A stretch of 64,000 bases of DNA from Spirochaetaceae bacterium. Its GTDB lineage: Bacteria > Spirochaetota > Spirochaetia > DSM-27196 > PWMO01. Shown here piece after piece: positions 5,048-49,733 of the stretch. Positions within the stretch are counted from its first letter, which is position 1; each line of letters starts with the position of its first letter. The notes under the pieces were generated by a model. It did no database searches. It worked only from the letters and a program-made list of their open reading frames with translations, and was not told where the DNA came from. A program made the translations under genes and the position numbers. The stretch covers positions 61,057 through 125,056 of the forward strand of contig REDW01000115.1 in the NCBI GenBank assembly GCA_007693325.1, read 5' to 3'.

Positions 5048-5071
5048 TTGTCCACAAGAGTAGTACGCTCT

Positions 5072-6592
5072 ATGAAACAGAACCAGAGCCAACCCTCAAC
5101 AGCAGCTCTGCTGGCGTTGTGCCTGCTCTACGCTGTGTCGTTGACGCTGTTCTTCCTGTTGCCGGCTCAACAGCGTCACGGGCGCATCTGGAGTGGGTAC
5201 TACCTGCTGCTGGTTGATCCCGAAGCCGACTGTGAACAGCTGGTCGAGCGGCTGAATGCCGCGCGGTTTGAGCGTGTGATAGCCGCCTGTACCGCTACAG
5301 TGGCGCTGAACAGGTTTGGATCGCTGGAGACTGTACCACTGCCGACAGTGGCGGCACGCCTGGACCCGGTAGACCCGCGACTGGATCCCTACATTCGATC
5401 CCTGCCGGATTGGTTCCGCACAACCTCAAACGGGCAGCCGGCGGCAATTGTGTACCTTGCCAGCGAGGAGAATCCCTGGCTGGCGTATCGTAGCCTGGCT
5501 GCTGCGCTGAACGACGATGGAACGTGGTGGCACTTCGCAGAGTGGGATCTGCAGGGGGCTCTGGTCTTCAGCGCCGTTTTTGGTCTGATCGCGCTGCTGT
5601 TGATCGTGCGCGGCCGCGGCTACCGCACGGCAGCGCTGGCGGCAGCGCTGCCGTGGCTGCCGTGGTTAGTCTTCGGCGGCTTGCCGGCTTTCGGTGTTGC
5701 AGTGAGCGTATACTGCTCAGCGGTTGGTACAATGGAAGTAGGGGCGCGTGCCGTGCGCGACCGTCGAAACGGTCCACTTTTAGCCGGGCTCGCGTGGCTG
5801 ACAATCGCGGTAGCGGTCAGCGTGCTGGTTTATCCCGGCGACGGCTTCTACGGTCGGTTGGCCGTGGTTGCAGGCAGCAGCGGCACTGCTGCTGCAGTGC
5901 TGGCACTGCTGCTGCTGCGTTGGCGCGATTATCGCCTCAGCGAGCATCGGCTGTTCACGCCGCTTCCGATCACGCGGACACGCCGCTGGCGCCGGATGGC
6001 TGCGCCCGGGGTGCTGCGTGCGGTGCTGGTGCTGGCGCTGGCAGCGCCGCTACTGTACGCGGTACTGCCGCAGCCCGAGGTGCCGCATTTGCCCGAACCA
6101 GAGCCGATTGACGGCGATCATCACAACTTTGAGACGCTGCATCGTCTTGCCGATCATCGCGCGGCCGGAGCACTGCCCAACCTGTCGGACTACGTGGCAC
6201 ATCGTGCGTTTCAGGAAGCGTTCATGTACCGGCGCGATTGGGGAGTACCGCAGCAGGATGAGGTTCTGACCCGACCGCGCTTTGTGCGCAATCAGACACA
6301 GCTGGAGCGCAGTGATGAAACAATAGTGGAGTACACCCGCGCGTGGCTCGATCGCGTGCTGCGGGAATCACCGCGCTACGGTGTTGAGGCTATTCTGTTG
6401 GCTCAGCCCGCTGCGGTTCAGGTTGTGCGGCGCCCAAAGACTAAGGTATACTTCGGGCGGTCTTTTCTGGCACGGCACGCTATACTTATGATCGTGGTTG
6501 CGGCACCTTATTTTGTCTACGCTGCTGCAGGACGACGGGCGAGCTATAGTGGTCGGGCCCTGTTGCAGAGGAGCAATCGGCACTACGCATGA
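5072..6592 (+). CDS. Polytopic membrane protein of unknown function
   Basis: 506 aa from ATG 5072 (TTG 5048 is also possible). It has several hydrophobic helices and no motif I recognise. Its stop overlaps the rnfC start (ATGA at 6589-6592). Confidence 0.6.
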   Translation: MKQNQSQPSTAALLALCLLYAVSLTLFFLLPAQQRHGRIWSGYYLLLVDPEADCEQLVERLNAARFERVIAACTATVALNRFGSLETVPLPTVAARLDPVDPRLDPYIRSLPDWFRTTSNGQPAAIVYLASEENPWLAYRSLAAALNDDGTWWHFAEWDLQGALVFSAVFGLIALLLIVRGRGYRTAALAAALPWLPWLVFGGLPAFGVAVSVYCSAVGTMEVGARAVRDRRNGPLLAGLAWLTIAVAVSVLVYPGDGFYGRLAVVAGSSGTAAAVLALLLLRWRDYRLSEHRLFTPLPITRTRRWRRMAAPGVLRAVLVLALAAPLLYAVLPQPEVPHLPEPEPIDGDHHNFETLHRLADHRAAGALPNLSDYVAHRAFQEAFMYRRDWGVPQQDEVLTRPRFVRNQTQLERSDETIVEYTRAWLDRVLRESPRYGVEAILLAQPAAVQVVRRPKTKVYFGRSFLARHAILMIVVAAPYFVYAAAGRRASYSGRALLQRSNRHYA

Positions 6593-12863: not shown

Positions 12864-13790
12864 TCAGCGTACGTCGAGATCGGCTCGCCGCAGCGAGGCG
12901 GCAATCCAGTCGGACGCCTGGGCGTGGTAATGCGGTCGGGCCAGCAGAAACTCCAATACCGCGCGCTGGAAGAGCCCCTGGTAGTAGTACGTCTGTCCGA
13001 GGTAGAAGCGCGCACGCGCTTCTACCTCGGATGGCAGCGGCAGAGTCAGCAGATTCTCGATCTGCTCACGCGCCTGGTGCCACCGGCCGTGCGAAAACGG
13101 GCCGTCGACAATGCTGCGCAGGGTGAACGCTACTCCCTTATCGCTGAGGTCGGCGTCTTCTGGCAGCACGGTTGCAGCGCGTGCGCGCGACCGCTGCGGC
13201 GGCACGCTCTCCATCAGCCGTTCAACCGCCGCGGCGGTGGCCGGTTCAAGCCGCGTGACACGCTGTTGGGGAAGCGGTCGCGGCAGAGCATCTCCGTCAC
13301 CCTGCAGCATATCGCGCCACGGCTGCAGGTATGGCAGCGGACTGGCGCGAAACGAGTAGGGAGCAAAGAACTGCCGGTCGCTGATGCGCGAGCCCAGCGG
13401 CAATTGCACCGCGGCAGTGGTAGTATTGCGTCCCGGTTGCAGTACGATCGACCCATCGGCAATTGCCCGGGCCGATACCAGTGCGTAGTACGCCGGCACG
13501 CCGGGTATCGGGTAGTCGCGGAACTCCTGCCGGGCGCTGCTGACTACCGCAATCCGGGTAGCCGCGGCCAGCTTCTCGGTAGACTGGATCGGGTCGCGCG
13601 AGCGGAACAGGATCAGGTCGCCGGGGTCTGAATCTGCGCTCCAGCTCACAGTCACAGCATCATCGGTCACCTCGCTGCGCACTCTGCTTATCGGTTGCTC
13701 GGTGCCGGCCGCGGCCCTCACGGCCGCGGCGGACATAAGCGCCGTCAACAGCAGTGTCAGCATCAGCGTACTTGTCCGCAAATGCTTCAT
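12864..13790 (-). CDS. Secreted protein of unknown function, co-oriented with and 14 nt downstream of the encapsulin gene
   Basis: ATG 13790 is preceded by GAGAGGTGG (GTG 13799 is an alternative start). Signal peptide MKHLRTSTLMLTLLLTALMSAAAVRA. The C-terminal end is TPR-like (ARARFYLGQTYYYQGLFQRAVLEF). Confidence 0.6.
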   Translation of the reverse strand: MKHLRTSTLMLTLLLTALMSAAAVRAAAGTEQPISRVRSEVTDDAVTVSWSADSDPGDLILFRSRDPIQSTEKLAAATRIAVVSSARQEFRDYPIPGVPAYYALVSARAIADGSIVLQPGRNTTTAAVQLPLGSRISDRQFFAPYSFRASPLPYLQPWRDMLQGDGDALPRPLPQQRVTRLEPATAAAVERLMESVPPQRSRARAATVLPEDADLSDKGVAFTLRSIVDGPFSHGRWHQAREQIENLLTLPLPSEVEARARFYLGQTYYYQGLFQRAVLEFLLARPHYHAQASDWIAASLRRADLDVR

Positions 13791-13804: not shown

Positions 13805-14599
13805 TTACTTCAAAAACAGAAGGACCGTCGGGTCGAGCACGCGGAAGGTAAACGTCTCGGTAAAGTAGAGGCTCACCGTTTGCGAGCTGTGCGAACTGTA
13901 GCCGATATCGATATCGCGGCCAAGGACCATCTCGATGTCACCTCCGCGCTGCGATACCAGCATTGCCGCTGGAATGAACGGGCTGAACAGCACCGGCCCG
14001 CCGATGACAGCCTCAACGTGCTGGATCAGCGGTTTGCCGACAACGGTGCTCATCAGGTAGTTCCATTCGGACTCGCGAACAACAAGCGCGTAGGGCCCTT
14101 CAATCATCGCTTTGCGCAGCGTAGTCAGCCCGGCAACCACCGACGGGTACAACTGATCCAGCTTGCCGCCGTAGTTAATCGGATCGTGAGCGCATAGCGC
14201 TTGAAGCGGCTCGAGCCCGGCCTCTTTCAGGCCGAGGTAGACGGCCTGTTCCTCGAACTTGGCCAACTCCCAGGCGGCCTGCTCCAACGGCTGCAAATCG
14301 ATGTCCGCGGCTCCGCGAACCGCGTTGTCGAGCTCCCACAGGTTGAGTTCAAACGGTGAACGCATTTCAACCAGCGGTTGCACCCGGCACACGCCGTAGC
14401 GCACAGAGTCTTCCGGCTGCTCGGCCGGCTGTGACAGGCGCCCGCTGGGAACCGCCATGTAATCAACCCCTTTGGGGCCAACCAGATCGACGACCTGGCG
14501 CAGCGTGAGGGTGCTCTTGAGGTAGCGAACCGCTTGCGACTCTATCTCCTGCCAGGCTGCCGATGCGATCGGTGCCAGCTCTTTTCTGAGCATATCCAT
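13805..14599 (-). CDS. Family 1 encapsulin shell protein (linocin M18-type, HK97 fold)
   Basis: 264 aa. The N-terminus LRKELAPIASAAWQEIESQA and the C-terminus VSQRGGDIEMVLGRDIDIGYSSHSSQTVSLYFTETFTFRVLDP match, from memory, the conserved ends of Thermotoga-type encapsulins. Confidence 0.9.
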   Translation of the reverse strand: MDMLRKELAPIASAAWQEIESQAVRYLKSTLTLRQVVDLVGPKGVDYMAVPSGRLSQPAEQPEDSVRYGVCRVQPLVEMRSPFELNLWELDNAVRGAADIDLQPLEQAAWELAKFEEQAVYLGLKEAGLEPLQALCAHDPINYGGKLDQLYPSVVAGLTTLRKAMIEGPYALVVRESEWNYLMSTVVGKPLIQHVEAVIGGPVLFSPFIPAAMLVSQRGGDIEMVLGRDIDIGYSSHSSQTVSLYFTETFTFRVLDPTVLLFLK

Positions 14600-14601
14600 A
14601 A

Positions 14602-14997
14602 TCAGCGCTTCTCCCTGTCGCGAACGTGTCCGATGCCCAGTCCGCGTGCTGAGCCGTTGCTGCGCGTGCCAGATCCGCCGGCGTGTTCTGCGCCGTGTCC
14701 GGTGGCCGCTTCTTCGGACGCCACAATGTCCCCTTCAGAAAAGAGATAGGTCTGCATCATCTCGTCCCAGCCGGGCATATTGCGTCGCAGCCACTCCAGC
14801 GCCATGCAGGCGTGCTCCATTTCTTCGTTGCGATTGTGCTCGAGGATGCGGCGCACTCCTTCGTCGCCGGCCAGGCTCATCCGCTGGTTGTACCAGTCTA
14901 CCGCTTCGACCTCTTCCTTCAGACTCATCAGTATGCGGGTGCAGTCGCGCGTGTGACCGCTCAGTTCCTCTGCCGGCTCGTGGTATTGATCGCTCAT
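14602..14997 (-). CDS. Encapsulated ferritin-like protein (EncFtn) with C-terminal cargo-loading peptide
   Basis: EEVEAVDWYNQR, HNRNEEMEHACMALEWLRR and YLFSEGDI are the EncFtn signature helices. A Gly/Ala/Ser linker follows, then ...SARGLGIGHVRDREKR. An AAGGAG SD lies 6 nt before the ATG. The stop is 2 nt from the encapsulin start. Confidence 0.9.
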   Translation of the reverse strand: MSDQYHEPAEELSGHTRDCTRILMSLKEEVEAVDWYNQRMSLAGDEGVRRILEHNRNEEMEHACMALEWLRRNMPGWDEMMQTYLFSEGDIVASEEAATGHGAEHAGGSGTRSNGSARGLGIGHVRDREKR

Positions 14998-15175
14998 AGG
15001 CTACTCCTTGCAGCGTGTGTCTATCTCTGTCTGCCCGCACACTATATCACGTTGCGCCGATGTGTGCGAGGTTGCCGCTGCCTGTCTGGAAACATCGCTC
15101 GTGCTCGTCTATACTGCACGGTAATGTACTGTACTGGACGGTCAGCTGCGGTACATGACTCAACAGGGGGCAGAT

Positions 15176-16279
<1,104 letters not shown>

Positions 16280-16283
<4 letters not shown>

Positions 16284-19003: not shown

Positions 19004-20017
19004 GTGAACGCGATGTCAGGGCAACTGCACCGCCCACTGCTGCTGGTTGGCGTTGTACTCAGTCTGGCGGCGGCACCGGTTGCCGCCGGAGGATGGTTTC
19101 GATCCAACGCCGACGCCGAGGCGCTGGCGCCGATCGAGGCGGCCGCACGATCCGCTCACAGCTGGGTGCTGCACGTCGATCAGTCGCCGCACGAGACCGT
19201 GCGTCTGCTCTATCACAACGGCGCACTGGTATCGGAACAGCGGCTGGACCCCGACGGTGCGCTGATAGAGCGCTACGAGTACCGCTACCGTGACGGACGG
19301 CGCATAGAAGCGCGCGCTTTTCGCGCCGATGCGCCGGGCGGCGATGCCGGGCAACCGGTTTATAGCGATAGCTATAGCTACAGTAGCGACGGCATGCTGC
19401 GCGAGCTGCGCCGTCGTTACGTTGACAATAGCGAGCGTAGCTCGCGCTACGTCTTTGTTCGGGGGCGGCTGCTGGAGGAACAGCACCGAAGCGGTGAGAT
19501 GCTGCAGCGGCTGCGCTACGACAGCCTCGAGCGCGTGCAGCAACTGCAGCAGCTGCGCGACGACGAGCTCGTATCCAGCACCCGTTACTACTATCGCGGG
19601 GACAGCGCCCGGTTGGAGCAAACGGTTGAAGAGCAGCACGATCGAGATGGCGTCAGCGTCACCAGCGAGTACTTCGATGCCGAGCAGCGCAGTATACGCA
19701 GCGTGGTCAGCCGCGATGAGCGCACCGTCTCGGTCAGTGAGCGCAGCCACGGGCCGCACGGGCTGATCCGTGAGGTTGTCACCGAACCCGGGCGCCGCCG
19801 TGTCAGCAGCTTCGAGTATGACCAGGATGGCAGGTTGACGCAGCAGGAAGAGCGTGTGAATGAACGTCTGCAGAGCCGCATTATCTATCCGGAGCAGGGC
19901 CGGCGGATCGAGGAGCGATTCCACAATGGGCAGCTCATTGTACGGCTGCACTTTCGCAATGACGAGCAGACTGCAAGGGAGATTATTCGTGACGGCGAAG
20001 TCATTCGCAGCCGCTGA
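19004..20017 (+). CDS. Exported repeat protein with YD-repeat-like units
   Basis: Signal-like N-terminus (LLLVGVVLSLAAAPVAAG). Units such as YEYRYRDGRRIE, YSYSSDGMLRE and FEYDQDGRLTQQ recur and fit the Y.YD..GRL pattern. Confidence 0.55.
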   Translation: MNAMSGQLHRPLLLVGVVLSLAAAPVAAGGWFRSNADAEALAPIEAAARSAHSWVLHVDQSPHETVRLLYHNGALVSEQRLDPDGALIERYEYRYRDGRRIEARAFRADAPGGDAGQPVYSDSYSYSSDGMLRELRRRYVDNSERSSRYVFVRGRLLEEQHRSGEMLQRLRYDSLERVQQLQQLRDDELVSSTRYYYRGDSARLEQTVEEQHDRDGVSVTSEYFDAEQRSIRSVVSRDERTVSVSERSHGPHGLIREVVTEPGRRRVSSFEYDQDGRLTQQEERVNERLQSRIIYPEQGRRIEERFHNGQLIVRLHFRNDEQTAREIIRDGEVIRSR

Positions 20018-23446: not shown

Positions 23447-23944
23447 GTGCGATGCAGCTATTGTGGCAAGAATGAAGCCCCGTTTCGCGTTGAGCAGTCG
23501 GTTGGCCAGGAGCAGACGCTGCACTGGATGTGTGTCGATTGCGCGCAGGTGGCCGGCATCATGACCGAATTGCCGCCGCGGATGCCGAGTCCCGCGGACC
23601 TGTTCGAAGAGTTGCTGTTCGGCCAGGACGAGGATGGAGTGGTCGAAAAGCAGTGCCGGTCCTGTGGCACCAGTTATCGCGAGTTCCGTGCCAGTGGAAA
23701 ACTCGGCTGCCCGGAGTGCTACATCGAATTTCACCACGATATCGCCGAGATGGCCGGGCAGGCGGATGATCCACGCGCCTACGCCGGCTCGCTACCGGGG
23801 CGGGTAGAGCCGTACAAAACCTTCTACGTTGACCGGGAAGCGTTGCGCCAGCAGCTCAGCCACGCCCTCGAACAGGAACGCTACGAAGAGGCGGCGCACC
23901 TGCGTGACCGTATCCGTATTCTGGATGGGCAGGGAGAGCGCTGA
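23447..23944 (+). CDS. mcsA: McsA-like protein-arginine-kinase activator (zinc fingers plus UVR domain)
   Basis: CSYCGK...CVDCA and CRSCGTSYREFRASGKLGCPECY cysteine pairs, plus the C-terminal UVR motif LSHALEQERYEEAAHLRDRIRIL. Confidence 0.8.
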   Translation: MRCSYCGKNEAPFRVEQSVGQEQTLHWMCVDCAQVAGIMTELPPRMPSPADLFEELLFGQDEDGVVEKQCRSCGTSYREFRASGKLGCPECYIEFHHDIAEMAGQADDPRAYAGSLPGRVEPYKTFYVDREALRQQLSHALEQERYEEAAHLRDRIRILDGQGER

Positions 23945-23945
23945 A

Positions 23946-24989
23946 ATGATAAACGCGCACAAGCTTGACCTTGGGCGCGGGTGGTTTCGAGCCTCCGGCG
24001 CCGATGGCGACGTAGTCATATCGTCCCGTATGCGGCTCGGTCGTAACTTCGATGGCCACGTGTTCACCGATCTGCTGAACGATTCCGACCGTGAGGCGCT
24101 AGCGGGCCGGCTGCGCGCCGTTGTGCAGGGCCACAACGACACCTTCAGCCGGCTTCAGCTGGCGCACAACGATCGCGAGATTCTTCCTGTTCTTCTGGAA
24201 CGGGGACTGCTCAACAGCGGCGGCGGGTCGATAGACGAGGTTTTTGTTCGTGCTGATCAAGGCTGCGTGATTATCCCGTTTGACCGTGAACACCTGACCC
24301 TGGTCGGGGTGCGCAGCGGGCTGGACTTGCGCGGCATCCACGACGATCTCAGCCGGATGGCTGACCGGGTAGATCGCGACCTGCCGTTTGCAGTTTCGCT
24401 GCACTGGGGCTACGTGGCCGCCGATCCAATGCAGAGCGGCGCGCTGTTGCAGGCATCGGTGCTGCTGCATTTGCCGGCTCTGGTGGAGCTTGGTGACCCC
24501 AATGCGGCACTTCAAGCAGCAGAGCGGCGCGGCATTCGCCTGGGGCGCTTTCATTCGGCGCAGGCGAACTCGCTGGCCAACGTCTACCAGCTGAAGACCG
24601 GCGCGGTTGCGGGTGCCAGTGAAGAGCAGATTACGGTTCAGCTTGAAGAAACGGTACGCGGATTAGTACATTATGAACGGGAGGCACGCCTGCAGCTGCT
24701 GCAGAGCAGGCGGCAGGATACCGCTGAGTCGGTGGAGCGCGCGATTGGATTGTTGCGCTACACTCCTGCGATTGCTGCTGATGAAGCAATGGCGCTGCTT
24801 TCGTGGATCAGACTTGGCGTAGCGCTGGAATTGACCGAAGAGATTAGCATGGAAGAAGTGACGGCGTTGCTGTTTGTGAGTCAGCGTTGCCATCTGATGC
24901 ACGCGGTGTCGGCCTGCGGCACTCATACCGGCGATGAAGACGACCGGCGCGCGCAACTGTTGCGTCAGCGGCTGGCTGCAACCAGCTAG
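23946..24989 (+). CDS. mcsB: McsB-like protein arginine kinase (ATP:guanido phosphotransferase domain)
   Basis: The internal ATG 23946 lies 1 nt after the mcsA stop. The sequence VISSRMRLGRNFDGHVF... has a guanido-kinase-type fold. Position is between mcsA and clpC. Confidence 0.8.
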   Translation: MINAHKLDLGRGWFRASGADGDVVISSRMRLGRNFDGHVFTDLLNDSDREALAGRLRAVVQGHNDTFSRLQLAHNDREILPVLLERGLLNSGGGSIDEVFVRADQGCVIIPFDREHLTLVGVRSGLDLRGIHDDLSRMADRVDRDLPFAVSLHWGYVAADPMQSGALLQASVLLHLPALVELGDPNAALQAAERRGIRLGRFHSAQANSLANVYQLKTGAVAGASEEQITVQLEETVRGLVHYEREARLQLLQSRRQDTAESVERAIGLLRYTPAIAADEAMALLSWIRLGVALELTEEISMEEVTALLFVSQRCHLMHAVSACGTHTGDEDDRRAQLLRQRLAATS

Positions 24990-25003
24990 CTCGTGGAGGG
25001 GAT

Positions 25004-27529
25004 ATGTTCAAAGGACTTACACAACGCGCTCAGAAAGTGCTCACGATACTGGCCCAGGATGAGGCAAAACGGTTCCATTCCGACCAGCTGCTGCCGGAGC
25101 ACATCATCCTTGCCCTGTTGAAGGAGGGCGGAGGACTGGGCTACAAGGCGCTCGAAAAGGTAATGATCGATCCGGCCAAGATGCAACTCGAAATCGAGCG
25201 CCTGATTCCCAAGAAGCGCGGAGGGTTTATCCTGGGAGACGTTCCTCCCTCGCCGCGCGGCAAAAAGGTGCTCGAGGATTCCGCCGAAGAGGCACGCAAC
25301 CTGGGCCACGAGTATATCGGTACCGAGCATCTGTTGCTGGCCTGTATGCGCGAGAGCGGCGGTGAGACCGCCAAGTACCTGGCCAAGAACAGCGTCAGCA
25401 TCGAGATGATGCGCGACGTGATTGCCGAGCTCTCGGGGTCAACCGCAGGTGGATCAGCAACTACGCCGCGGCTGCCGCAGCAGAAGCGCAAGACCGGAGG
25501 ACAGGCAGGCGGGAGCGCCGCGGGCAGCAAGAAGGCAACGCCGACCCTCGATGAGTTTGCGCGTGACCTGACCATCATGGCCCGCGAAGACAAACTCGAC
25601 CCGGTGGTTGGCCGAGACCGTGAGATTGAGCGCGTGATCCAGATTCTGGCTCGCCGGACCAAGAACAATCCGGTACTGATTGGTGAACCCGGGGTCGGCA
25701 AGACCGCCATTGTTGAAGGTCTGGCGCAGCGGATTGTAGATGCGTCGGCCCCCGAGGTGCTGATCGGCAAGCGCGTACTGACGCTCGACCTCGCTTCGCT
25801 GATTGCCGGTACCAAGTACCGTGGCGAGTTCGAGGAGCGGCTCAAACGGGTCATGAAAGAGATAATCAATGCCGGGAACGTGGTGCTGTTCATCGATGAG
25901 CTGCATACCATCATAGGCGCCGGCGGCGCCGAAGGCGCGATCGACGCCTCCAATATGCTCAAGCCGGCACTTTCGCGCGGCGAGATCCAGTGTATCGGCG
26001 CTACAACGCTCAACGAATACAAGAAGTATATCGAGAAGGATGCCGCCCTCGAGCGTCGCTTTCAGACCATTTTTGTGGAGGAGCCTTCGGTGGCAGAGAC
26101 TATCGAGATCCTCAAGGGCATCAAGGAGCGCTACGAAGACCACCATAACGTTTCGTACACGCCCGGAGCGCTGGAGGTATCCGCGGTTCTGTCACGGCGC
26201 TACATTCAGGATCGGTTTCTGCCGGACAAGGCCATCGATCTGATGGATGAGGCCGGTTCGCGCAAGCGGATCCACAACAGCGTGCGCCCAACCGAGCTGG
26301 CTGAACTCGAGCGCGAGATAGAACAGCTCAACACTGAGAAGCTGGCGCTGGTGAACTCGCAGAACTATGAACGCGCCGCCGCGGTGCGCGACGAGGTGCG
26401 CACACTCAAGGGCAGAGTCGAGGAGCTCAAGAGCCAGTGGAAGATCACGCTCAAGACCGAGCAGAACGTGGTTGACTCGGAGGATATCCAGTACGTGCTG
26501 GCGTCGGTAACCGGGATTCCGTTGGCGCGAATTGCACAGAGCGAGCAGGAGAAGCTGCTGAAGATCGAGGATGATCTGCACAAGCAGGTCATCGGGCAGA
26601 ACGAGGCTATCGACGCGATCTCTTCGAGTATTCGCCGGTCTCGGACCGGTCTCAGTGCACCCGACCGGCCGATGGGTTCATTCATCTTCCTGGGTCCAAC
26701 CGGAGTCGGCAAGACGCTGCTGGCAAAGAGCCTGGCCGAGTTTCTGTTTGGCAGTGCCGATGCGCTGGTGCGCATTGATATGTCGGACTTCATGGAGAAG
26801 CACAATGTTTCGCGGCTGGTTGGGGCGCCTCCGGGCTACGTCGGCTACGATGAAGGCGGCCTTCTGACCGAGAAGATCCGGCGCAAGCCGTACAGCGTAG
26901 TACTGCTTGACGAAATTGAGAAGGCGCATCCCGACGTCTTCAATATTCTGCTGCAGGTACTCGAAGAAGGGCAACTGCAGGACAATCTCGGTCACACGGT
27001 GTCGTTTCGCAACTGTGTCATGATCATGACCTCGAATGCCGGGGCACGCGAGATCTCGCGGGACTCCCAGGTTGGTTTCCAGACCGAGAACGGCGGGCTG
27101 ATGGAGCACAAGGAGATCAAGTCTTCGGCTATGAACGAGCTCAAGCGGCTGTTCCGTCCCGAGTTCCTCAACCGGGTCGATGAGATCGTGGTCTTCCACA
27201 GTCTGACGCGGCCCGAGGTAGCGCAGATACTAGAGATACTGCTGGCAGACGTGCAGACGCGGCTGGCTGAGAAAGAGATCGTTCTCGAGGTAAAGAAGAG
27301 CGCCAAGCAGTACCTGATCGACCACGGGTACGACGTAAAATTTGGTGCGCGACCGATGCGCCGCATCATCCAGAAAGAGATCGAGGATCCGCTGTCAATG
27401 GAAATCCTCAGAGGGCGGTTTGGTGAGGGAAGTCACGTGATTGTCGGCGTTCGCGGCGGCAAGATCGCCTTCCGCGCCAAGGCCACCAAGCCGAGCGAGA
27501 AAGAGGAAGTTCCGGTTCCTACACCGTAG
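25004..27529 (+). CDS. clpC: ATP-dependent Clp protease ATP-binding subunit ClpC
   Basis: Double Clp-N repeat, two AAA+ modules (GEPGVGKTAIVEGLA; GPTGVGKTLLAKSLA) and a UVR-like middle domain. 841 aa. Confidence 0.95.
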   Translation: MFKGLTQRAQKVLTILAQDEAKRFHSDQLLPEHIILALLKEGGGLGYKALEKVMIDPAKMQLEIERLIPKKRGGFILGDVPPSPRGKKVLEDSAEEARNLGHEYIGTEHLLLACMRESGGETAKYLAKNSVSIEMMRDVIAELSGSTAGGSATTPRLPQQKRKTGGQAGGSAAGSKKATPTLDEFARDLTIMAREDKLDPVVGRDREIERVIQILARRTKNNPVLIGEPGVGKTAIVEGLAQRIVDASAPEVLIGKRVLTLDLASLIAGTKYRGEFEERLKRVMKEIINAGNVVLFIDELHTIIGAGGAEGAIDASNMLKPALSRGEIQCIGATTLNEYKKYIEKDAALERRFQTIFVEEPSVAETIEILKGIKERYEDHHNVSYTPGALEVSAVLSRRYIQDRFLPDKAIDLMDEAGSRKRIHNSVRPTELAELEREIEQLNTEKLALVNSQNYERAAAVRDEVRTLKGRVEELKSQWKITLKTEQNVVDSEDIQYVLASVTGIPLARIAQSEQEKLLKIEDDLHKQVIGQNEAIDAISSSIRRSRTGLSAPDRPMGSFIFLGPTGVGKTLLAKSLAEFLFGSADALVRIDMSDFMEKHNVSRLVGAPPGYVGYDEGGLLTEKIRRKPYSVVLLDEIEKAHPDVFNILLQVLEEGQLQDNLGHTVSFRNCVMIMTSNAGAREISRDSQVGFQTENGGLMEHKEIKSSAMNELKRLFRPEFLNRVDEIVVFHSLTRPEVAQILEILLADVQTRLAEKEIVLEVKKSAKQYLIDHGYDVKFGARPMRRIIQKEIEDPLSMEILRGRFGEGSHVIVGVRGGKIAFRAKATKPSEKEEVPVPTP

Positions 27530-27543
27530 CCGGCAGCAGGAGC

Positions 27544-28482
27544 TCAGCGCCGCGCGGCGCTGAGCGTGTCAAAGGCGTAGAGCATATTGGTAAGCGCGGT
27601 CAGTTCGGCGTCACTGATCGGCCGCTGGGCTACCGCGCCGATACCGCCGAGTTCCAGTGTGGGGTGCTCGGACTCTATTGCCACGCGTACCGCGGCCTCG
27701 ACAGCCGAGCTGTAGCCGAAGCGCACGCTTTCGAATCGGTGGCGGCTGTCCTGCAGTCGGCGGCTGCTACCGGCACTGATCGGCAGCGCAATTGATCCGC
27801 TGTCTCCGTTGATGGTCACGCGGCGGAATGCGAGCGGAGGTTCGCTGCGTGGGTAGCGCTCATTAACCACCATGAACAGCTCGGCCGGAAGGCCGCGTTG
27901 CATCTCGATCATCAAATAGAGCGCGCGCGGCGTGCTGCGGTTTACTACCGCATCATAATAGCGGCGCAGCCCGTTGACTTCCTCCACCACAATGCCGCTG
28001 TTAGCCAGCGGGGAGCGTGGCCCGGGAGGCGCCAGGTCGGCTGCCGAAACATCGGCTACCGCAATGAAGGCGCCGCCGGTGTCGCGCGGCAAAGGGCTGT
28101 CGCGCAGCTGGCTGCGGAAGAGCTGCAACTCCTCGGCCGCAACCATGGCCTGGTCGGGCAGCGGCCGGCCTTCGTCTAGTGCGGTTGCGAGGGTCTCTTC
28201 CAGCAGCTCACGCAGCCGTGTATTCTCGCGCCGCAGTTGCTGGTGCTCCTGTTCAAGGTCCAGGAACCGGCCGCGGTCAACGCGTTGCTGCAGCAGCCTG
28301 TCAACCTCGCGCGCAAGTCTCATTTGTTCGGTGGTGGTACTCTGCAGGCGCTCTGCAAGCTCGGCGTTTTCGCGCGCCAGCAGCTCATTCTGTTCTTCGA
28401 GGTTGCGGACCTGTTGTCCGGCACAGCCCGACAGCAGCATTATGACTGTAGCGGCGACAAATGCTGTTCCAAGATGACGCAT
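27544..28482 (-). CDS. Lipoprotein with coiled-coil region, unknown function
   Basis: I chose ATG 28482 because it gives MRHLGTAFVAATVIMLLSGC (lipobox LSGC). A heptad-like region QNELLARENAELAERLQ... follows. Confidence 0.6.
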   Translation of the reverse strand: MRHLGTAFVAATVIMLLSGCAGQQVRNLEEQNELLARENAELAERLQSTTTEQMRLAREVDRLLQQRVDRGRFLDLEQEHQQLRRENTRLRELLEETLATALDEGRPLPDQAMVAAEELQLFRSQLRDSPLPRDTGGAFIAVADVSAADLAPPGPRSPLANSGIVVEEVNGLRRYYDAVVNRSTPRALYLMIEMQRGLPAELFMVVNERYPRSEPPLAFRRVTINGDSGSIALPISAGSSRRLQDSRHRFESVRFGYSSAVEAAVRVAIESEHPTLELGGIGAVAQRPISDAELTALTNMLYAFDTLSAARR

Positions 28483-28519
28483 AATGCGATAGTATAATCC
28501 AAAGGCGTAGTTTGTAACA

Positions 28520-29125
28520 GTGAAAAAGCACCCGTTTCGCCTTCGCGGCATAACCGATGAGCGCGTTCTCGACGCCCTGGCAACCGTACCACGGCACCTT
28601 TTTGTGCCTGCTGACGTGCGTGACCGCGCCTACGAGAATATTCCGTTGCCGATCGGTCATCAGCAGACCATCTCTCAACCCTTTATCGTTGGTTTTATGA
28701 CCGAAGTGCTGGAGCTGCGCAAGGAGCACCGGGTGCTGGAAATCGGCACCGGCAGCGGCTATCAGGCCGCCGTTCTGGCGCAACTTGTGGACAGCGTCTT
28801 CAGCGTGGAGGTAATCCCCGAGCTGGCGCAGCAGGCTCACACTCGCCTTCGTTCGCGCGGTTACGAGAACGTCCATGTGAGAAGCGGCAACGGCTGGCAG
28901 GGGTGGCCCGAAAACGCACCGTACGACCGCATAATAGTGACCGCCGCGGCGCCGAGTATTCCCGAGGCGCTGGTCGAGCAGCTGGTCAGCGGTGGCCGGA
29001 TGGTGCTGCCGGTGGGCTTGCCAGAAGAGGTCCAGTCGCTTATGCTGGCGGTCAAGACTGGGGAGGGGAATGTCGAAACCAGACGGCTGCTTTCCGTCCG
29101 GTTTGTTCCCATGACAGGACAGTAG
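28520..29125 (+). CDS. pcm: Protein-L-isoaspartate O-methyltransferase
   Basis: VPRHLFVP, GHQQTISQPFIV, VLEIGTGSGYQAAVLA and GGRMVLPVG. Confidence 0.9.
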   Translation: MKKHPFRLRGITDERVLDALATVPRHLFVPADVRDRAYENIPLPIGHQQTISQPFIVGFMTEVLELRKEHRVLEIGTGSGYQAAVLAQLVDSVFSVEVIPELAQQAHTRLRSRGYENVHVRSGNGWQGWPENAPYDRIIVTAAAPSIPEALVEQLVSGGRMVLPVGLPEEVQSLMLAVKTGEGNVETRRLLSVRFVPMTGQ

Positions 29126-42301: not shown

Positions 42302-42470
42302 AGTCTCAAAGATATGCCACCCCACGGCTGCGGGCAAGCTCTGCGCTGATATGCGGCAGCAAAAAACAATTTCGGCACCACTGTTTACAAAACGCCCCGA
42401 ATGCGCTATTCTGAAACTCAACTAATTCAGTTGTGTTAGTTATAAAACGGAGCGGGAATAAGGATTGGGC

Positions 42471-43388
42471 ATGAATGCTGGAATTGCCGGGCTTGTTGGC
42501 AACACCCCGATGGTACCGCTGGCGCGGCTTGACAGCGGGCTTGGGGCCGAAGTGTGGGCCAAGCTCGAGTCGCATAATCCGCTGTCGAGCGTCAAGGACC
42601 GCATCGGGCTGGCGATGATCGAAGCTGCCGAGCGCGACGGGCTGCTTACGCCGGGTGCCACTATCGTTGAAGCTACCAGCGGTAACACCGGTATCGCGCT
42701 GGCGTACCTGGGCGCTGCCAAGGGCTACCGCGTGGCGCTGACGATGCCCGACACCATGAGCACCGAACGCCGTCGCCTGCTCGCCGCCTTTGGTGCCGAG
42801 CTGGTGCTGACGCCGGGGCACGAAGGCATGAACGGCGCAATTGCGGCCGCTGAAGCGATTGTGCGGCGGACCCCGGGTGCCTTCCTGGCGCGTCAGTTTG
42901 ATAATCCGGCCAATCCGGAGGTGCATTACCTCACCACCGCCGAGGAGATCTGGCGCGACAGCGCCGGAGCGGTTGATATCTTTGTGGCCGGTGTGGGCAC
43001 CGGTGGCACAATAACCGGTGTCTCGCGGCGGTTGAAGCAGCTCAAACCGTCCTACCGCGCGGTGGCCGTTGAACCGCAGGAATCCGCGGTGCTGTCGGGC
43101 GGACAGCCCGGACCACACAAGATTCAGGGGATTGGCGCCGGTTTTGTTCCGCGTGTGCTCGATCGCAGCCTGATCGACGAGATTGTCACCGTTTCCGCAG
43201 AGGACGCCACACGCGCGGCGCGTGCGCTCGCGCGCAGCGAGGGCATCCTCGGGGGCGTTTCGGCAGGTGCCAACGTGCACGCCGCGCTGCAACTTGCCGC
43301 GCGCCCGCAGAATCAGGGCAAAGTTATAGTAACGGTAATCTGTGATTCCGGGGAACGATATCTGAGTACATGGCTCTGGGAGCAATAG
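42471..43388 (+). CDS. cysK: Cysteine synthase A (O-acetylserine sulfhydrylase)
   Basis: [15 protein letters not shown] and [13 protein letters not shown]-enzyme motifs. ATG 42471 lies 6 nt after TAAGGA. Confidence 0.9.
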
Positions 43389-44684: not shown

Positions 44685-45386
44685 TCAGCGGCGCCACCTG
44701 TGCCAGCGTCCGCCGATCAGCAGGTCGTAGGGGTGATAGTTGGCCTTGTACGACATCGACGGACAGCCGGGTACAAAGAACCCCAGATAGAGCCACTCTT
44801 TGTTCAGCTGCGCAGCCAGCTCGATTTCGCGTAGCACCGAGAATACCCCCAGGCTGCGCGCGGCGTAGTGCGGATCGAACACATAGTAGACGCTCGAGAG
44901 CCCACGCGGCAGGACATCTACCCAGCCGGCACCGATCAGTTGTGCACCGAGACGGTAGCGCATCACCAGTGACGGCACCGGCGCGTTGCACAGGAATCGC
45001 ACGAAGGATTGCCGCGCCTGCTCTTCGGGTTGCTTATCGTGGTGCCGGGCGCGCTGATACTCAACGTAGAGTGCAAACAGGTCTTCGTCGGCAGCCGGAT
45101 CGTGTATGCTCACGTGTAGGTCGGCGTTCTTACGTTGCACGCGGCGTTGCGAGCGGCTTGGCCGGAAACGCTGTACGTGAGTGCGGATTGGAATGCACAG
45201 CGTGCAGCCGGGGCAACGGTTCTGATACAATACCGGACCGCTGCGGCGCCAGCCGGCATCGATCAGAGCTTCGTAGACCGCAGCCGGAAGACGCTCTGCT
45301 GCAAACGCCTGCGTCAGCCAGTGACGGTTGGGAAGGTAGGGGCAGGGGCCCTGGTCGATTGCGTGTATCAGCTCGTTCGGTTCCAT
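44685..45386 (-). CDS. bpt: Arginyl/leucyl-tRNA--protein transferase of the Ate1/Bpt family (N-end rule)
   Basis: Only the last 233 codons of ORF 44685..46538 are used. The sequence is CPYLPNR...GWRRSG...YQNRCPGC..C.PIR, then the C-terminal GAGWVDVLPRGLSSVYYVFDP...SLGVFSVLREIELA. Confidence 0.85.
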   Translation of the reverse strand: MEPNELIHAIDQGPCPYLPNRHWLTQAFAAERLPAAVYEALIDAGWRRSGPVLYQNRCPGCTLCIPIRTHVQRFRPSRSQRRVQRKNADLHVSIHDPAADEDLFALYVEYQRARHHDKQPEEQARQSFVRFLCNAPVPSLVMRYRLGAQLIGAGWVDVLPRGLSSVYYVFDPHYAARSLGVFSVLREIELAAQLNKEWLYLGFFVPGCPSMSYKANYHPYDLLIGGRWHRWRR

Positions 45387-45419
45387 CTGGCGCGGTTTTA
45401 TTCTATAACAAGAGATGAG

Positions 45420-47345
45420 ATGAAAAAACCGCCGCAGCCTGACCGGCCCGCCTCGGCGAGGGTTGATTATCAGGTATTCTCGCACCAATTCGTCGCGCGG
45501 CTGTCGCGGGCGTTGCGCAAAGAGTCCTGGGGCCGTACTGCAATTCAGCTGGCCTGGACGGCAGGGCCGGTGACCTACCTGGCTCTCAACGGTGGTTACT
45601 ACATCGGATTCGGCAGGCTGGCGCCGCCGGAGCTGTTCTTCTACTTTGGCGGTTACACGGTAATAGCGGGACTGTTTGCCGTACTGGTGCGCGTTGGCTA
45701 CAACGTGGTGCGGGGCGGCGAGCACGAGCGCATGCAGAGCGCGCTGACCGAGGTAATGGGCGATATTCCGCGCCTGATCTCGGTGGTCAGAAACCGCAAT
45801 CTGGAAGCCTACGAGGCTGATGATCGGGTATTCCTGGCAGCAAAATACCTGCTGGACAACACCGATGCTTCGGAACAGGCAATCCGCCAGGCGTTGCTCG
45901 ATCTGACCGGAGACAATACACTGGCCGACGCCGTACGTTCGATTGAGATTTTCCGGCGTGCCGGATTGTTTGCCCGTGTGCAGGATATGCAGCAGGCCGT
46001 CGGTGAGAGGCTGGCGCTGGTGCTGCCGCGGATCGAGCAACGTTCGCTGGCTGTGGCAGAGGAAGTTCGGCGTAGATTGGCCGGTATTGTTCCCAATAAG
46101 CGGCAGGGTCGCGCCAGAACCGAGGGATTCATTGAGCGCGTGCTTTCGGCCGGTGAGCACGACAGCTACGATCTGATGAGCCTCTCCGACGTGGAGGAGC
46201 TGTTCACGCTGGGGTTTGAGCTTCTGGCCGGGCGTCTGTACACCTGGTTCTCGCTGCAGTACGTAGGCCACTCGGCCCTGCGCGATGTTGACCACCGTTA
46301 TGAGCGGGCGCGCCGCGAACTGCGCGAGGCTATTCACGTGCGCAACAGCCGCCTGCGGATCCTGGCTGAGTTTCTCAACGAGTCCGAATCTATCAACCGC
46401 GTTCCGGCGGCGATTCCGGTGATCCTGGCGGTGGCCGAGGTGTATCGCAACGTGCAGGGCGCGGTCGATGGAATCGTGCACGAAATCCAGCAGCGCGAGA
46501 ACGCCAGGCAGACGCGGTTCAGCGCCGACGAGCTGCATTCGTATCGCACGCTATTGCGGTTGTGGGAGGCGCTTCACCGGGCCAACGAAGCCGTCAACCG
46601 CCGTCGTGCGGCGCTGGCGCGTAGTATCAGGGATTACGAGAAGGTGCTGCGTTCGTCGCGCCGGGCACAGGCACTGCGTATCCTGGCGCCGGGCGAGACC
46701 GGCAACGGGGTTCGACTGACGCCGCGCGAGGTGCAGCTGTCTGCCCGGGAACGGATGCGCATGGCCTTGCGCATGTCAGAAATGCTGAGCGATGTCACGG
46801 CTCAAAGCCGATTCTTACGTACCACGCTGCTCGACAGCTTTGCAAGCGGTGTTGAGCTCACCAATGACGGCTACAAGCACCTGGCGATAGCGATGGCTAT
46901 AGAGCTTGATCAGTTGATCGCGCTCGGTAACGGCGAGCTTCAGTCGGCGATCGAGGCCTCCGCGGCGGCCAACGTTGGCTCGGTTGAGGCGGGGCTGTCA
47001 CGCGAAACGCGCATCGGGTGGGGCGTTGCGCTGGTGCGCGACGTTCGCGACGACGTTGGAATGGCCGTCGGGCGGCTGGTTTCAAGCCTGGCGTACTACC
47101 ATGGCATGCAGATCACCGATCAGGCGGTAAGCTATCTTGTGAAGCAGTTTGGAGCCCAGGAAACCCTGCTACGCCGTTTTTCTGCCGGGCAGGCCACAAC
47201 GGATCCGGCTCACCTGCCGGCGGTGCTGGAGCGGCTCGAGCCGCAGTTCCTGGATGTGCGCCCGCTGCCGCGCTCACACTACGCAATCGCCGACCGGATG
47301 CAGCGGCGCGTTCAGGGATCTGCGCATCATACGTCCAGCGAGTGA
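45420..47345 (+). CDS. Large hypothetical protein with two N-terminal TM helices and a long helical domain
   Basis: 641 aa from ATG 45420. TM segments AIQLAWTAGPVTYLALNGGYYIGFG and LFFYFGGYTVIAGLFAVLVRVGY. I see no recognisable catalytic motif. Confidence 0.55.
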   Translation: MKKPPQPDRPASARVDYQVFSHQFVARLSRALRKESWGRTAIQLAWTAGPVTYLALNGGYYIGFGRLAPPELFFYFGGYTVIAGLFAVLVRVGYNVVRGGEHERMQSALTEVMGDIPRLISVVRNRNLEAYEADDRVFLAAKYLLDNTDASEQAIRQALLDLTGDNTLADAVRSIEIFRRAGLFARVQDMQQAVGERLALVLPRIEQRSLAVAEEVRRRLAGIVPNKRQGRARTEGFIERVLSAGEHDSYDLMSLSDVEELFTLGFELLAGRLYTWFSLQYVGHSALRDVDHRYERARRELREAIHVRNSRLRILAEFLNESESINRVPAAIPVILAVAEVYRNVQGAVDGIVHEIQQRENARQTRFSADELHSYRTLLRLWEALHRANEAVNRRRAALARSIRDYEKVLRSSRRAQALRILAPGETGNGVRLTPREVQLSARERMRMALRMSEMLSDVTAQSRFLRTTLLDSFASGVELTNDGYKHLAIAMAIELDQLIALGNGELQSAIEASAAANVGSVEAGLSRETRIGWGVALVRDVRDDVGMAVGRLVSSLAYYHGMQITDQAVSYLVKQFGAQETLLRRFSAGQATTDPAHLPAVLERLEPQFLDVRPLPRSHYAIADRMQRRVQGSAHHTSSE

Positions 47346-48502
47346 CTCAATCGTGACAGGAGCTCGTTCTCGACCGGATCCGCCGGATCGAGCTCGCAGA
47401 CCGAGTGCAGCACGTGCGTGATTCCGCGCGGCAGGTCCTGCTCGAGAAAGCGCTGGTCGGACGGGTAGAGTTGCCCCGACTCGTCACGGGCCCTGAATCT
47501 CAGCGCTGCAGCGGTAGCCTCCATGATGCGGTCGTAGGCACACTCCATGCGCTGCGCCAGCAGCATTGCACCTAACATGCGGTCGCTCTTGTGCAGCTTG
47601 CGCGGCAGGTCGCGACCAACGCGGTAGACGGTATCACCCAGAGACCGGTTGGCAAATCGGCTCAGAAGATCATTGATGTGTTCTTCGAGTCCTTCGGGAT
47701 CGAGGTCATTGGGGTATGTGCGCGCAAGTGCTGCAGCCGACTGCTGCATTGCCGCGCGAACCGTGCGCTGAACGCTCTCCATTTCGAGTGCCTGCCACAG
47801 GAAGAGCAGATCGGGATTCTCGCGGTAGCCGAGGTAGGCACAGGCGGCGTGTCCCATGTTGTGGACAAACAGCTTGCGGTCAACGTAGGCGGTTATGTTA
47901 TCAACGGCCGTGATTCCGGCTACCGCCGGCACCGGACCGCGGAAGCCGAGCCGATCCAGGATCAGGGTATTGTACGGTTCAGCGAATACCTGCAGCGGAT
48001 CGGCCTCGCGATCATCCTCGGTCATAAGCGGGACCATCTTGCCGATACTGGTCTCGACCACACCGGTACGCGACAGTACCGCGGAATCGTGCGGCAGGTG
48101 TCGCTGGAGCTGTTGCCGTACCACTGTGGCGCCGTTGCGGATATTCTCGGCAAGGATGATGCTGACCGAACTTCTGCGCAGCTGCAGTCCCTCGGCAACC
48201 ATCTCGGAGACACGCGGCAGGGCGCCTGTTCCCACCGAAGTTGCGATCAGATCTGCGCTGCGCACCGCTTCAATCACCGATTTGCGGTCCGTGCCGTTGA
48301 TTGCGTCAACGCCGGTCACCTCGATGCGCTCTTCGCGGCCGTCGGGGTGTTTGATGATTACCGGGTAGCAGCGGCGCCGGTTGAGCTCCGCTACAATCTG
48401 CTCATCGATATCAACAAAGGTAACCGCCCACCCGGCGCGGGCGAATAACTGCCCGATAAACGACCGACCGATGTTGCCGGCACCAAACTGCAGTAGTTTC
48501 AT
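47327..48502 (-). CDS. mtlD: Mannitol dehydrogenase family protein (mannitol-1-phosphate 5-dehydrogenase-like)
   Basis: ATG 48502 gives MKLLQFGAGNIGRSFIGQLFARAGW (Rossmann). The mid-region DRKLFVHNMGHAACAYLGY is typical of MtlD. Confidence 0.75.
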   Translation of the reverse strand: MKLLQFGAGNIGRSFIGQLFARAGWAVTFVDIDEQIVAELNRRRCYPVIIKHPDGREERIEVTGVDAINGTDRKSVIEAVRSADLIATSVGTGALPRVSEMVAEGLQLRRSSVSIILAENIRNGATVVRQQLQRHLPHDSAVLSRTGVVETSIGKMVPLMTEDDREADPLQVFAEPYNTLILDRLGFRGPVPAVAGITAVDNITAYVDRKLFVHNMGHAACAYLGYRENPDLLFLWQALEMESVQRTVRAAMQQSAAALARTYPNDLDPEGLEEHINDLLSRFANRSLGDTVYRVGRDLPRKLHKSDRMLGAMLLAQRMECAYDRIMEATAAALRFRARDESGQLYPSDQRFLEQDLPRGITHVLHSVCELDPADPVENELLSRLSHSLDV

Positions 48503-48563
48503 AATGAAATTGAGTATACGCGAGTATAGCGCAAAACGGCAATCGGCCTTATACTGGTGTATT

Positions 48564-49733
48564 ATGAAACCAACCCAACGAACCGTGGCGACCCAGCTCT
48601 CATGGGTCATAGAGTCAAAGAGTATCGAGCTGTCGCTGACCGAGCTCGGTGGTATGATGGCGCCGGTGCTGTTCTTTCGCGATTCCAAGAATCCGGTGCA
48701 GCCCTACTACGTCAGCCCGTGGCAGGAGGAGAAGCCCGTGCTGACTGAACCGGTGCTGGTGCCGCTGCGCGGGGACTTCTTCTGCATGCCGTTCGGCGCC
48801 GACAACTCCTACCGCGGCGAGAATCACGTCGTACACGGCGAGCCGGCTAGCGCAACCTGGACGCTGGACAGTTACGCGCGCGGACAGGGGCGTACGCAGT
48901 TTTCGGCAAGCCTGGCAACGCGTGAACGTCCCGGCAAGGTGACCAAGCGGATCCTGCTCAAGGACGATCAAAGCGTTATCTATCTCCAGCATGAGCTGTC
49001 AGGCTACAGCGGAAAAACCAGTCTGGGGCATCACGCCACGCTCAATCCGGGCACGGAGCCCGGAGGTATGCTGATTTCCACCAGTCCGATAGAGTTTGGT
49101 CTGGCGCGCCCGATGCCGCGGTACTACACTGCTGACGGCGAGTACGCGTCGCTGGATGGGACCAAGCCGTTTCGCTCGATGCAGAAGGTTCCCACCGTCT
49201 GGAAGGACCCTGCTACCGTGGATATCGGTGTCTTCCCGGCGCGCGAAGGCTACTGTGATATCGCCGGCCTGGTTTCAAAAGGAGCAAGGGCGGCGGCAAC
49301 ATCGCGTAAGCCGGCGTGGACTACCGCGGTGTTCCCCGGAGGGAAGTATCTGTGGTTCTCGCTCAAGAACGCCGCGCTGCTTCCGGTTACCTTGTTCTGG
49401 ATGGAGAATCGCGGCCGCCACGGTGCACCGTGGAGTGGACGTAACGTCTGTATCGGACTGGAGGACGTCTGCGGTTACCTGGCCGAGGGTCTGGCTCCGT
49501 CATTGAAGAAGAACCCGCTCAGCGAAGCCGGTATTCCCACCGCGCTGACGCTGTCGCCCAGGAAGCCGACGCAGATCAACTACATCCAGGGTGTGGCGCG
49601 CATTCCGGCCGGATTTGACCGGGTGGAAACGGCAGCGTTTGCCCCGGGGGGTGTGCGATTCAGCTCGCAGTCCGGCAAGGTAGTCGAAGCGGCTGTAGAT
49701 TGGGATTTTCTGTTCTCAGGAGCCATTGGCTAG
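48564..49733 (+). CDS. Hypothetical protein, possibly with a galactose-mutarotase-like beta-sandwich fold
   Basis: 389 aa from ATG 48564. LRGDFFCMPFG...HVVHGE weakly resembles aldose-epimerase-fold proteins. The assignment is tentative. Confidence 0.5.
   Translation: MKPTQRTVATQLSWVIESKSIELSLTELGGMMAPVLFFRDSKNPVQPYYVSPWQEEKPVLTEPVLVPLRGDFFCMPFGADNSYRGENHVVHGEPASATWTLDSYARGQGRTQFSASLATRERPGKVTKRILLKDDQSVIYLQHELSGYSGKTSLGHHATLNPGTEPGGMLISTSPIEFGLARPMPRYYTADGEYASLDGTKPFRSMQKVPTVWKDPATVDIGVFPAREGYCDIAGLVSKGARAAATSRKPAWTTAVFPGGKYLWFSLKNAALLPVTLFWMENRGRHGAPWSGRNVCIGLEDVCGYLAEGLAPSLKKNPLSEAGIPTALTLSPRKPTQINYIQGVARIPAGFDRVETAAFAPGGVRFSSQSGKVVEAAVDWDFLFSGAIG

Follow-up and report, generated by a model that had tools for sequence, protein, structure and literature searches.

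A two-gene family-1 encapsulin operon with an EncFtn cargo in a Spirochaetaceae bacterium

Introduction

In the metagenome-assembled genome of a Spirochaetaceae bacterium, two adjacent genes are publicly named 'bacteriocin' (TVR30041.1) and 'hypothetical protein' (TVR30042.1, locus tag EA404_13410). The question raised by this locus is whether the two genes encode a protein nanocompartment and its cargo, and whether the gene that follows them (TVR30040.1, 'hypothetical') belongs to the same system. We analysed the surrounding 64-kb stretch of the 142.6-kb contig REDW01000115.1, referred to here as the window, whose three products are identical to these NCBI proteins; positions are counted from its first nucleotide (nt). 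No publication was found in the literature for the sample and assembly accessions. A preliminary description of this DNA had read the pair as an encapsulin shell gene and a gene for an encapsulated ferritin (EncFtn).

Our analysis indicates that the locus is a two-gene family-1 (classical) encapsulin operon with an EncFtn cargo, a reading to which we assign a probability of about 0.93. Nothing that we found contradicts the family-1 encapsulin/EncFtn assignment. The system is an ordinary example of a well-described class and an uncharacterised new member of it.

Identification of the shell and cargo proteins

The two genes lie on the minus strand and meet at CGC TGA tt ATG GAT, where the EncFtn stop codon (14604-14602) and the shell start codon (14599-14597) flank a gap of 2 nt (14601-14600). 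The coordinates and the 2-nt junction given in the preliminary description proved exact, and all the motif strings that it had quoted were found in the two translations. The cargo gene directly precedes the shell gene, which is the canonical family-1 layout, in which the primary cargo has its gene directly upstream of the shell gene and carries a short C-terminal targeting peptide (PMC8346489).

We compared both products with curated profile hidden Markov models, and both exceeded the curated cutoffs far beyond chance. The shell protein, of 264 amino acids (aa), matched PF04454 (Linocin_M18) over the entire profile (1-253 of 253; E 2.7e-73, 246.8 bits, cutoff 24.3) and scored 250.2 bits (cutoff 100) on NF041155, the encap_f1 equivalog model for the family 1 encapsulin nanocompartment shell protein. 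The strings LRKELAPI, AAWQEIE and GGDIEMVLGRDIDIGYSSHSSQTVSLYFTETFTFRV were all present. Among solved structures, the shell aligned with the T. maritima encapsulin 3dkt from end to end (residues 1-264 vs 1-264, E 3e-53) and with the T=1 shells of R. rubrum, K. pneumoniae, A. acidipropionici, Haliangium ochraceum and mycobacteria at E 1e-42 to 1e-52. Weak matches (E 1e-8 to 1e-3) were obtained to the T=4 shell of Q. thermotolerans (6nj8), to the Dendrosporobacter and Bacillus methanolicus shell chains and to that of the engineered P3P4 encapsulin.

An AlphaFold2 model of the shell protomer, built on an alignment of 67 homologues, had a mean predicted local distance difference test score (pLDDT) of 94.5 and a predicted template-modelling score (pTM) of 0.88. 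The model corresponds to the HK97 fold (A-domain, P-domain and E-loop). Foldseek placed it closest to solved T=1 family-1 shells, with template-modelling (TM) scores of 0.92-0.95 and root-mean-square deviations of 1.6-2.1 A over ~265 columns, compared with TM scores of 0.74-0.79 against the T=3 and T=4 shells of M. xanthus and Q. thermotolerans. At 264 aa, the protein leaves no room for a fused extra domain.

The 131-aa cargo protein matched the complete profile of the Pfam family EncFtn-like PF22277 (1-85; E 4.8e-39, 132.5 bits, cutoff 27) and scored 141.9 bits (cutoff 125) on the NCBIfam model TIGR04535, encapsulin-associated ferritin-like protein. Its score on the EncB_fam model, 60.8 bits, fell under the cutoff of 90, indicating that the cargo is of the classical EncFtn/ferritin-like protein (Flp) type and not of the M. 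xanthus EncB subtype. The top match in the PDB was H. ochraceum EncFtn 7oe2 (E 2.9e-31, residues 2-129 vs 3-128), followed by the R. rubrum EncFtn structures 33bf and 5da5. Both proteins can be aligned over their full length to solved chains of EncFtn and of T=1 encapsulins, which supports the earlier reading of the pair. The system class is, as had been stated earlier, already described.

The ferritin-like domain spans approximately residues 4-88. The helix and tail strings of the preliminary description were located at residues 28-39 (EEVEAVDWYNQR), 54-72 (HNRNEEMEHACMALEWLRR), 84-91 (YLFSEGDI) and 116-131 (SARGLGIGHVRDREKR). The catalytic region aligned with R. rubrum EncFtn without gaps, and all seven metal-site residues were kept: E28, E29, E31, W35, Y36, E59 and H62 are the counterparts of R. 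rubrum E31, E32, E34, W38, Y39, E62 and H65. The ferroxidase-centre and entry-site residues are thus all identical, and the Glu/Glu/His positions proposed earlier for the ferroxidase centre are conserved. In addition, E59-M-E-H62 forms an ExxH motif, which defines the di-iron sites of EncFtn-type proteins (PMC11202242). At ~50% identity to solved decameric EncFtn proteins, the window protein would be expected to assemble as a D5 decamer.

The linker and targeting peptide of EncFtn

The ferritin-like domain is followed by a flexible linker and a targeting (cargo-loading) peptide, as the preliminary description had proposed from the resemblance of the tail to GSLGIGSL. The linker, of ~26 aa, falls within the 10-40 aa range of the disordered C-terminal region of encapsulated ferritins (PMC11202242). 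The peptide, G119-L-G-I-G-H-V-R126, stands opposite GSLGIGSLR in the H. ochraceum and R. rubrum alignments and is trailed by five residues, DREKR, up to the C-terminus. For Flp targeting peptides, L(F)-X1-V(I)-X2-X3-L(I) is the published consensus and LXI(L)X its minimal form (PMC11202242). L120-G-I-G-H-V125 fits it, the minimal form included, with Val rather than Leu or Ile at the final position.

We tallied this peptide among the best 120 EncFtn cluster representatives, 100 of which, the window's own protein included, carried a recognisable peptide. The core reads LGIG in 62 of the 100. At X3 the residues are K (49), S (25), T (9), R (7), G (6), N (3) and H (1), the single His being that of the window protein; position 6 is L in 59, I in 32, M in 4 and V in 3; K or R occupies position 7 in 67. 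Members of the window protein's own 90% cluster read GLGIG[H/N/Q]V, indicating that X3 is a free position and that Val is fixed only at about the species level. The variant retains the hydrophobic L/I/V anchors and the basic residue that follows them. The divergence from Ser/Leu to His/Val noted in the preliminary description is therefore real and rare, whereas its presentation as a novelty did not hold, since H, N and Q alternate within that same cluster. On these comparisons the His/Val peptide is at the edge of normal variation, with a conservative Val, and does not read as a new loading signal.

We also inspected the predicted peptide site of the shell. Mutagenesis of the K. pneumoniae shell identified Arg34, Asp229 and Ile230 as important for binding the peptide, and in its structure Asp38 is salt-bridged to the C-terminal lysine of the peptide (PMC10960027). 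The window shell has R34, D38, D229 and I230 at the same numbers, the equivalence being taken from the 1-259 vs 1-259 alignment with 8u50, and R34 and D229 are invariant across the 67 shell homologues. By this correspondence, R126 of the peptide would be positioned to pair with D38 of the shell. No protein other than EncFtn ended in an LGIG-type peptide when every open frame of the window, read in six frames and 70 aa or longer, was searched for a second cargo.

Features and expression signals of the locus

The features of the locus are collected in Table 1.

Table 1. Positions of the genes, cargo segments and candidate expression signals within the window.
Feature	Position	Strand	Basis
EncFtn cargo open reading frame (ORF), 131 aa, ATG start	14602..14997	(-)	ORF listing, hidden Markov models
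Family-1 encapsulin shell ORF, 264 aa, ATG start	13805..14599	(-)	ORF listing, hidden Markov models
Third gene, 308 aa from ATG, with GAGAGGTGG ribosome-binding site	12864..13790	(-)	ORF, sequence
Gly/Ala/Ser-rich flexible linker of EncFtn, ~residues 93-118, ASEEAATGHGAEHAGGSGTRSNGSAR	14644..14721	(-)	Beyond the Pfam domain; matched in the alignment by the low-complexity linkers of EncFtn from H. ochraceum and R. rubrum
Targeting (cargo-loading) peptide of EncFtn	14620..14643	(-)	Alignment with H. ochraceum and R. rubrum peptides
Shine-Dalgarno AAGGAG, 6 nt 5' of the EncFtn ATG	15004..15009	(-)	Read from sequence; invariant in alignment with L003 and L007
Candidate extended -10 element of the operon, TGaTATAGT	15041..15049	(-)	Inferred; aligns with TGgTATATT upstream of the L003 orthologue

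L003 and L007 in Table 1 are two of the related spirochaete loci compared below. Within the 3' end of the EncFtn gene, AGGGAG stands 11 nt before the shell ATG, a position compatible with translational coupling of the shell to EncFtn. In a strict scan for promoters and terminators, the divergent promoter of prfB was the only promoter called; the one terminator-like hairpin lay within the shell coding sequence and was disregarded. The GC content and the GC content at third codon positions of the EncFtn and shell genes equal those of the flanking genes; there is thus no compositional signal, and any transfer of the cassette was not recent. Recent horizontal transfer was accordingly rejected, the composition being native.

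The EncFtn operon shares a single 155-nt divergent intergenic region with the promoter of prfB, which encodes release factor 2. That promoter is sigma-70-like (15087-15115, plus strand; TGGAAA, 17-nt spacer, TATACT) and is conserved in L003. The prfB gene itself (15155-16283, plus strand) shows the classical programmed +1 frameshift: ORF0 (MTQQGADMLEDVSGPISELRENILETWRRL) stops at CTT TGA C (15242-15248), 3 nt downstream of a GGAGG Shine-Dalgarno-like element, and the +1 frame runs on as DPERLKFE... into the PCRF and RF-1 domains. At related loci, gene callers give truncated prfB products of 298-371 aa.

Proposed function

We modelled the mechanism on the R. rubrum, H. ochraceum and T. maritima systems. 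The shell protein would self-assemble from 60 subunits into a T=1 icosahedral HK97-fold shell of ~24 nm. During assembly, LGIGHVR at the tip of the EncFtn tail would dock in the lumenal pocket formed by the P-domain and the N-terminal helix of each protomer, and this docking would trap EncFtn decamers inside the shell. EncFtn would form a D5 ring of five dimers, in which E29, E59 and H62 at each dimer interface, close to Y36, would provide a di-iron ferroxidase centre. After entering through the shell pores, Fe(II) would be oxidised at the di-iron centres, and the ferric mineral would be kept in the lumen. The expected outcome is high-capacity iron storage together with the removal of Fenton-reactive Fe(II).

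Several points weigh against this account of the locus. All of its functional steps, namely assembly, loading, ferroxidase activity and physiological role, are drawn from homology. The T=1 prediction follows the closest solved relatives, as a T number is unreadable from a monomer model. The combination of His at X3 with Val at position 6 was absent from the other 99 relatives sampled, and family-1 cargo loading is reported to tolerate peptide mutation poorly (PMC10960027). The strict sigma-70 scan called no promoter for the EncFtn operon, the candidate -10 element included. Finally, the upstream-region alignment contained no iron-responsive operator, in the form of a Fur- or PerR-like palindrome.

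The same two-gene system could serve mainly to protect an anaerobe against O2 and H2O2 by scavenging Fe(II), rather than as an iron reserve. The Rnf complex encoded nearby may suggest an anaerobic, fermentative lifestyle, which would favour such a role, but no gene for an oxidative-stress regulator or a peroxidase is linked to the operon within the window. The system may play both roles at once, and they are indistinguishable from sequence data; we regard a mainly protective role as possible, though doubtful.

The third gene and the history of the cassette

The third gene begins 14 nt past the shell stop codon in the same direction, with no terminator in between. This arrangement makes its co-transcription with the encapsulin pair plausible, and the cassette now probably shares a transcript with it. 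The predicted model of the 308-aa protein has an N-terminal signal or transmembrane helix, followed by an Fn3-like beta-sandwich (~34-130) and, after a disordered linker, by TPR-like helices at the C-terminus (220-307). Its structural matches were weak and generic only, and Pfam returned a sub-threshold match to TPR_16. The family is small, with 33 cluster representatives, of which those named or examined come from spirochaete contigs; more distant relatives are 400-450 aa long and have a duplicated Fn3-like module.

We compared the gene order at this site among related spirochaete contigs, in which the encapsulin pair is conserved at the same locus with 54-72% identity. The results showed the order prfB / EncFtn-shell-third gene / GH57 in L003-L006 and L007-L009, the shell gene and the third gene being 180 nt apart in L007. 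In four more distant contigs (L010-L013), the order was prfB / third gene / GH57, with only 75-465 nt between the third gene and the next called gene towards prfB, and tblastn of these four contigs found no trace or remnant of either the shell or the EncFtn gene. The third gene thus always lies between prfB and GH57, with the encapsulin pair upstream or not. A Cas2-like ORF was observed in the corresponding gap of L013.

The presence of the third gene in the same slot without the pair indicates that it is the ancestral occupant and that the two-gene cassette is the variable element. The prfB identity to the window was 79% and 70% at cassette-bearing loci, compared with 64-68% at cassette-less loci, and the shell/EncFtn identity dropped alongside it (70/72%, then 54/57%). 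The closer relationship of the cassette carriers and the tracking of prfB identity fit a single gain followed by vertical descent. From these sequence comparisons, the cassette seems to have entered one spirochaete sub-lineage a single time and to have been passed on vertically since; losses are also possible.

Two readings would give the site or the peptide a special role: insertion of the cassette may have coupled cytoplasmic iron sequestration to an envelope Fn3/TPR protein, or the His/Val peptide may alter loading, for example in a pH-dependent manner. Both are without positive support, and we consider them very improbable. It is also extremely unlikely that three genes make up the system, with the 308-aa protein as an accessory component or a second cargo of the encapsulin. 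Such a role would suit the close, co-directional placement of the gene, its own ribosome-binding site and its position downstream of the shell gene in L003 and L007 as well. However, its homologues hold the prfB-GH57 slot in the four contigs that lack the pair, it lies 180 nt from the shell gene in L007, and no LGIG-type C-terminal peptide was found in its product. Moreover, the signal or transmembrane helix, Fn3-like sandwich and TPR-like helices of the model suggest that the protein is probably extracytoplasmic, whereas encapsulins are cytoplasmic. We therefore rejected the third gene as a component of the system on the basis of the four pair-less, remnant-free loci and the predicted domain structure. 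Likewise, the novelty earlier attributed to the third linked gene falls away, as it is a conserved syntenic neighbour that is present where the pair is absent.

Genomic surroundings

The window is otherwise ordinary chromosome. It encodes an Rnf complex, a GH57 glucanotransferase-like gene, prfB, a response regulator, a PEGA-domain protein and ftsY, as well as a Lol/MacB-like ABC system, McsB/ClpC-like genes, topoisomerase IV/gyrase-like subunits, an RND efflux pump, an M16 peptidase, an Mla system and citrate synthase. Pfam surveys of ~40 other ORFs of the window returned housekeeping genes only, with no phage genes, iron transporter or Fur/PerR regulator. The possibility that the shell is a degenerate prophage HK97 major capsid protein beside an unrelated free ferritin-like protein is virtually negligible: encapsulins are often mistaken for phage capsids, whose HK97 fold they share (PMC8346489), and the NCBI names count in its favour, but we rejected it on the 250-bit score on the family-1 equivalog model, top structural matches that are all encapsulins, neighbours (prfB, response regulator, ftsY, GH57 and Rnf genes) that include no phage genes, native composition, and a cargo that bears a targeting peptide and matches TIGR04535.

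Three other features of the window were recorded. A 617-aa ORF (44685-46538, minus strand) matched ATE_N and ATE_C (arginyl-tRNA-protein transferase) only in its C-terminal part, ~398-607, and its N-terminal ~390 aa had no Pfam match at E 1e-6; its start may be called too far upstream, or it may be an unusual fusion. At 23829-27529 (plus strand), a McsB-like ATP:guanido phosphotransferase gene lies immediately upstream of a gene for a ClpC/ClpB-type AAA+ chaperone with a UVR motif. Together they form a quality-control pair of protein-arginine kinase and ClpC, better known from Firmicutes. Long ORFs of 335-514 aa without a Pfam match at the thresholds used were found at 5048-6592 (plus), 19004-20017 (plus), 27544-28551 (minus), 42306-43385 (minus) and 48381-49733 (plus); some of them overlap other ORFs and may not be genes.

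Comparison with known systems

The assignment corrects the public annotation, from 'bacteriocin' to family-1 encapsulin and from 'hypothetical protein' to EncFtn cargo. Among Spirochaetaceae it also adds an example of a fixed chromosomal site that clearly either carries or lacks the cassette, a tidy case for the gain and inheritance of an encapsulin operon. The natural LGIG[H/N/Q]V variants may find minor use in cargo-loading engineering. The practical value is otherwise small, and no new question is opened.

The H. ochraceum system (7odw, 7oe2, 5n5f) resembles the system described here most closely in its cargo. It has the same two-gene layout and a cargo of 131 aa, which is the closest PDB match of the window cargo and aligns with it through the linker and targeting peptide (GSLGIGSLR vs GLGIGHVR in the window), and its T=1 shell matched the window shell at E 4.7e-48 with a TM score of 0.93. 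It differs in having Ser/Leu where the window peptide has His/Val, and its host is a myxobacterium rather than a spirochaete; the window system, in contrast to it, is uncharacterised.

R. rubrum EncFtn (Rru_A0973; 5da5, 33bf) shares with the window cargo the metal-site residues and the domain order of ferritin-like domain, linker and peptide, and the R. rubrum encapsulin (9ry4) matched the window shell at E 2.2e-52. Its shell chain is longer (280 aa vs 264), and its peptide reads GSLGIGSLK as opposed to GLGIGHVR. The T. maritima encapsulin (maritimacin; 3dkt, 7kq5), a T=1 60-mer with an Flp cargo, is the closest sequence match of the window shell, with equal length and a TM score of 0.92. The identity between the two shells is only ~36-37%, however, and the T. 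maritima peptide, GGDLGIRK, is shorter and has an intra-peptide salt bridge.

The preliminary description had counted the host lineage as a novelty, which was not upheld. Flp cargos have been reported in 23 bacterial phyla (Andreas & Giessen 2021), and none of the window's proteins was found among the entries listed under spirochaete names in that catalogue, which was searched by such names only. The same entries already include spirochaete family-1 systems with ferritin-like (Flp-class) cargo from Brachyspira and Treponema, so the host phylum is not new. These operons come from other genera and environments, and they share with the window system its phylum, its encapsulin family and its cargo type.

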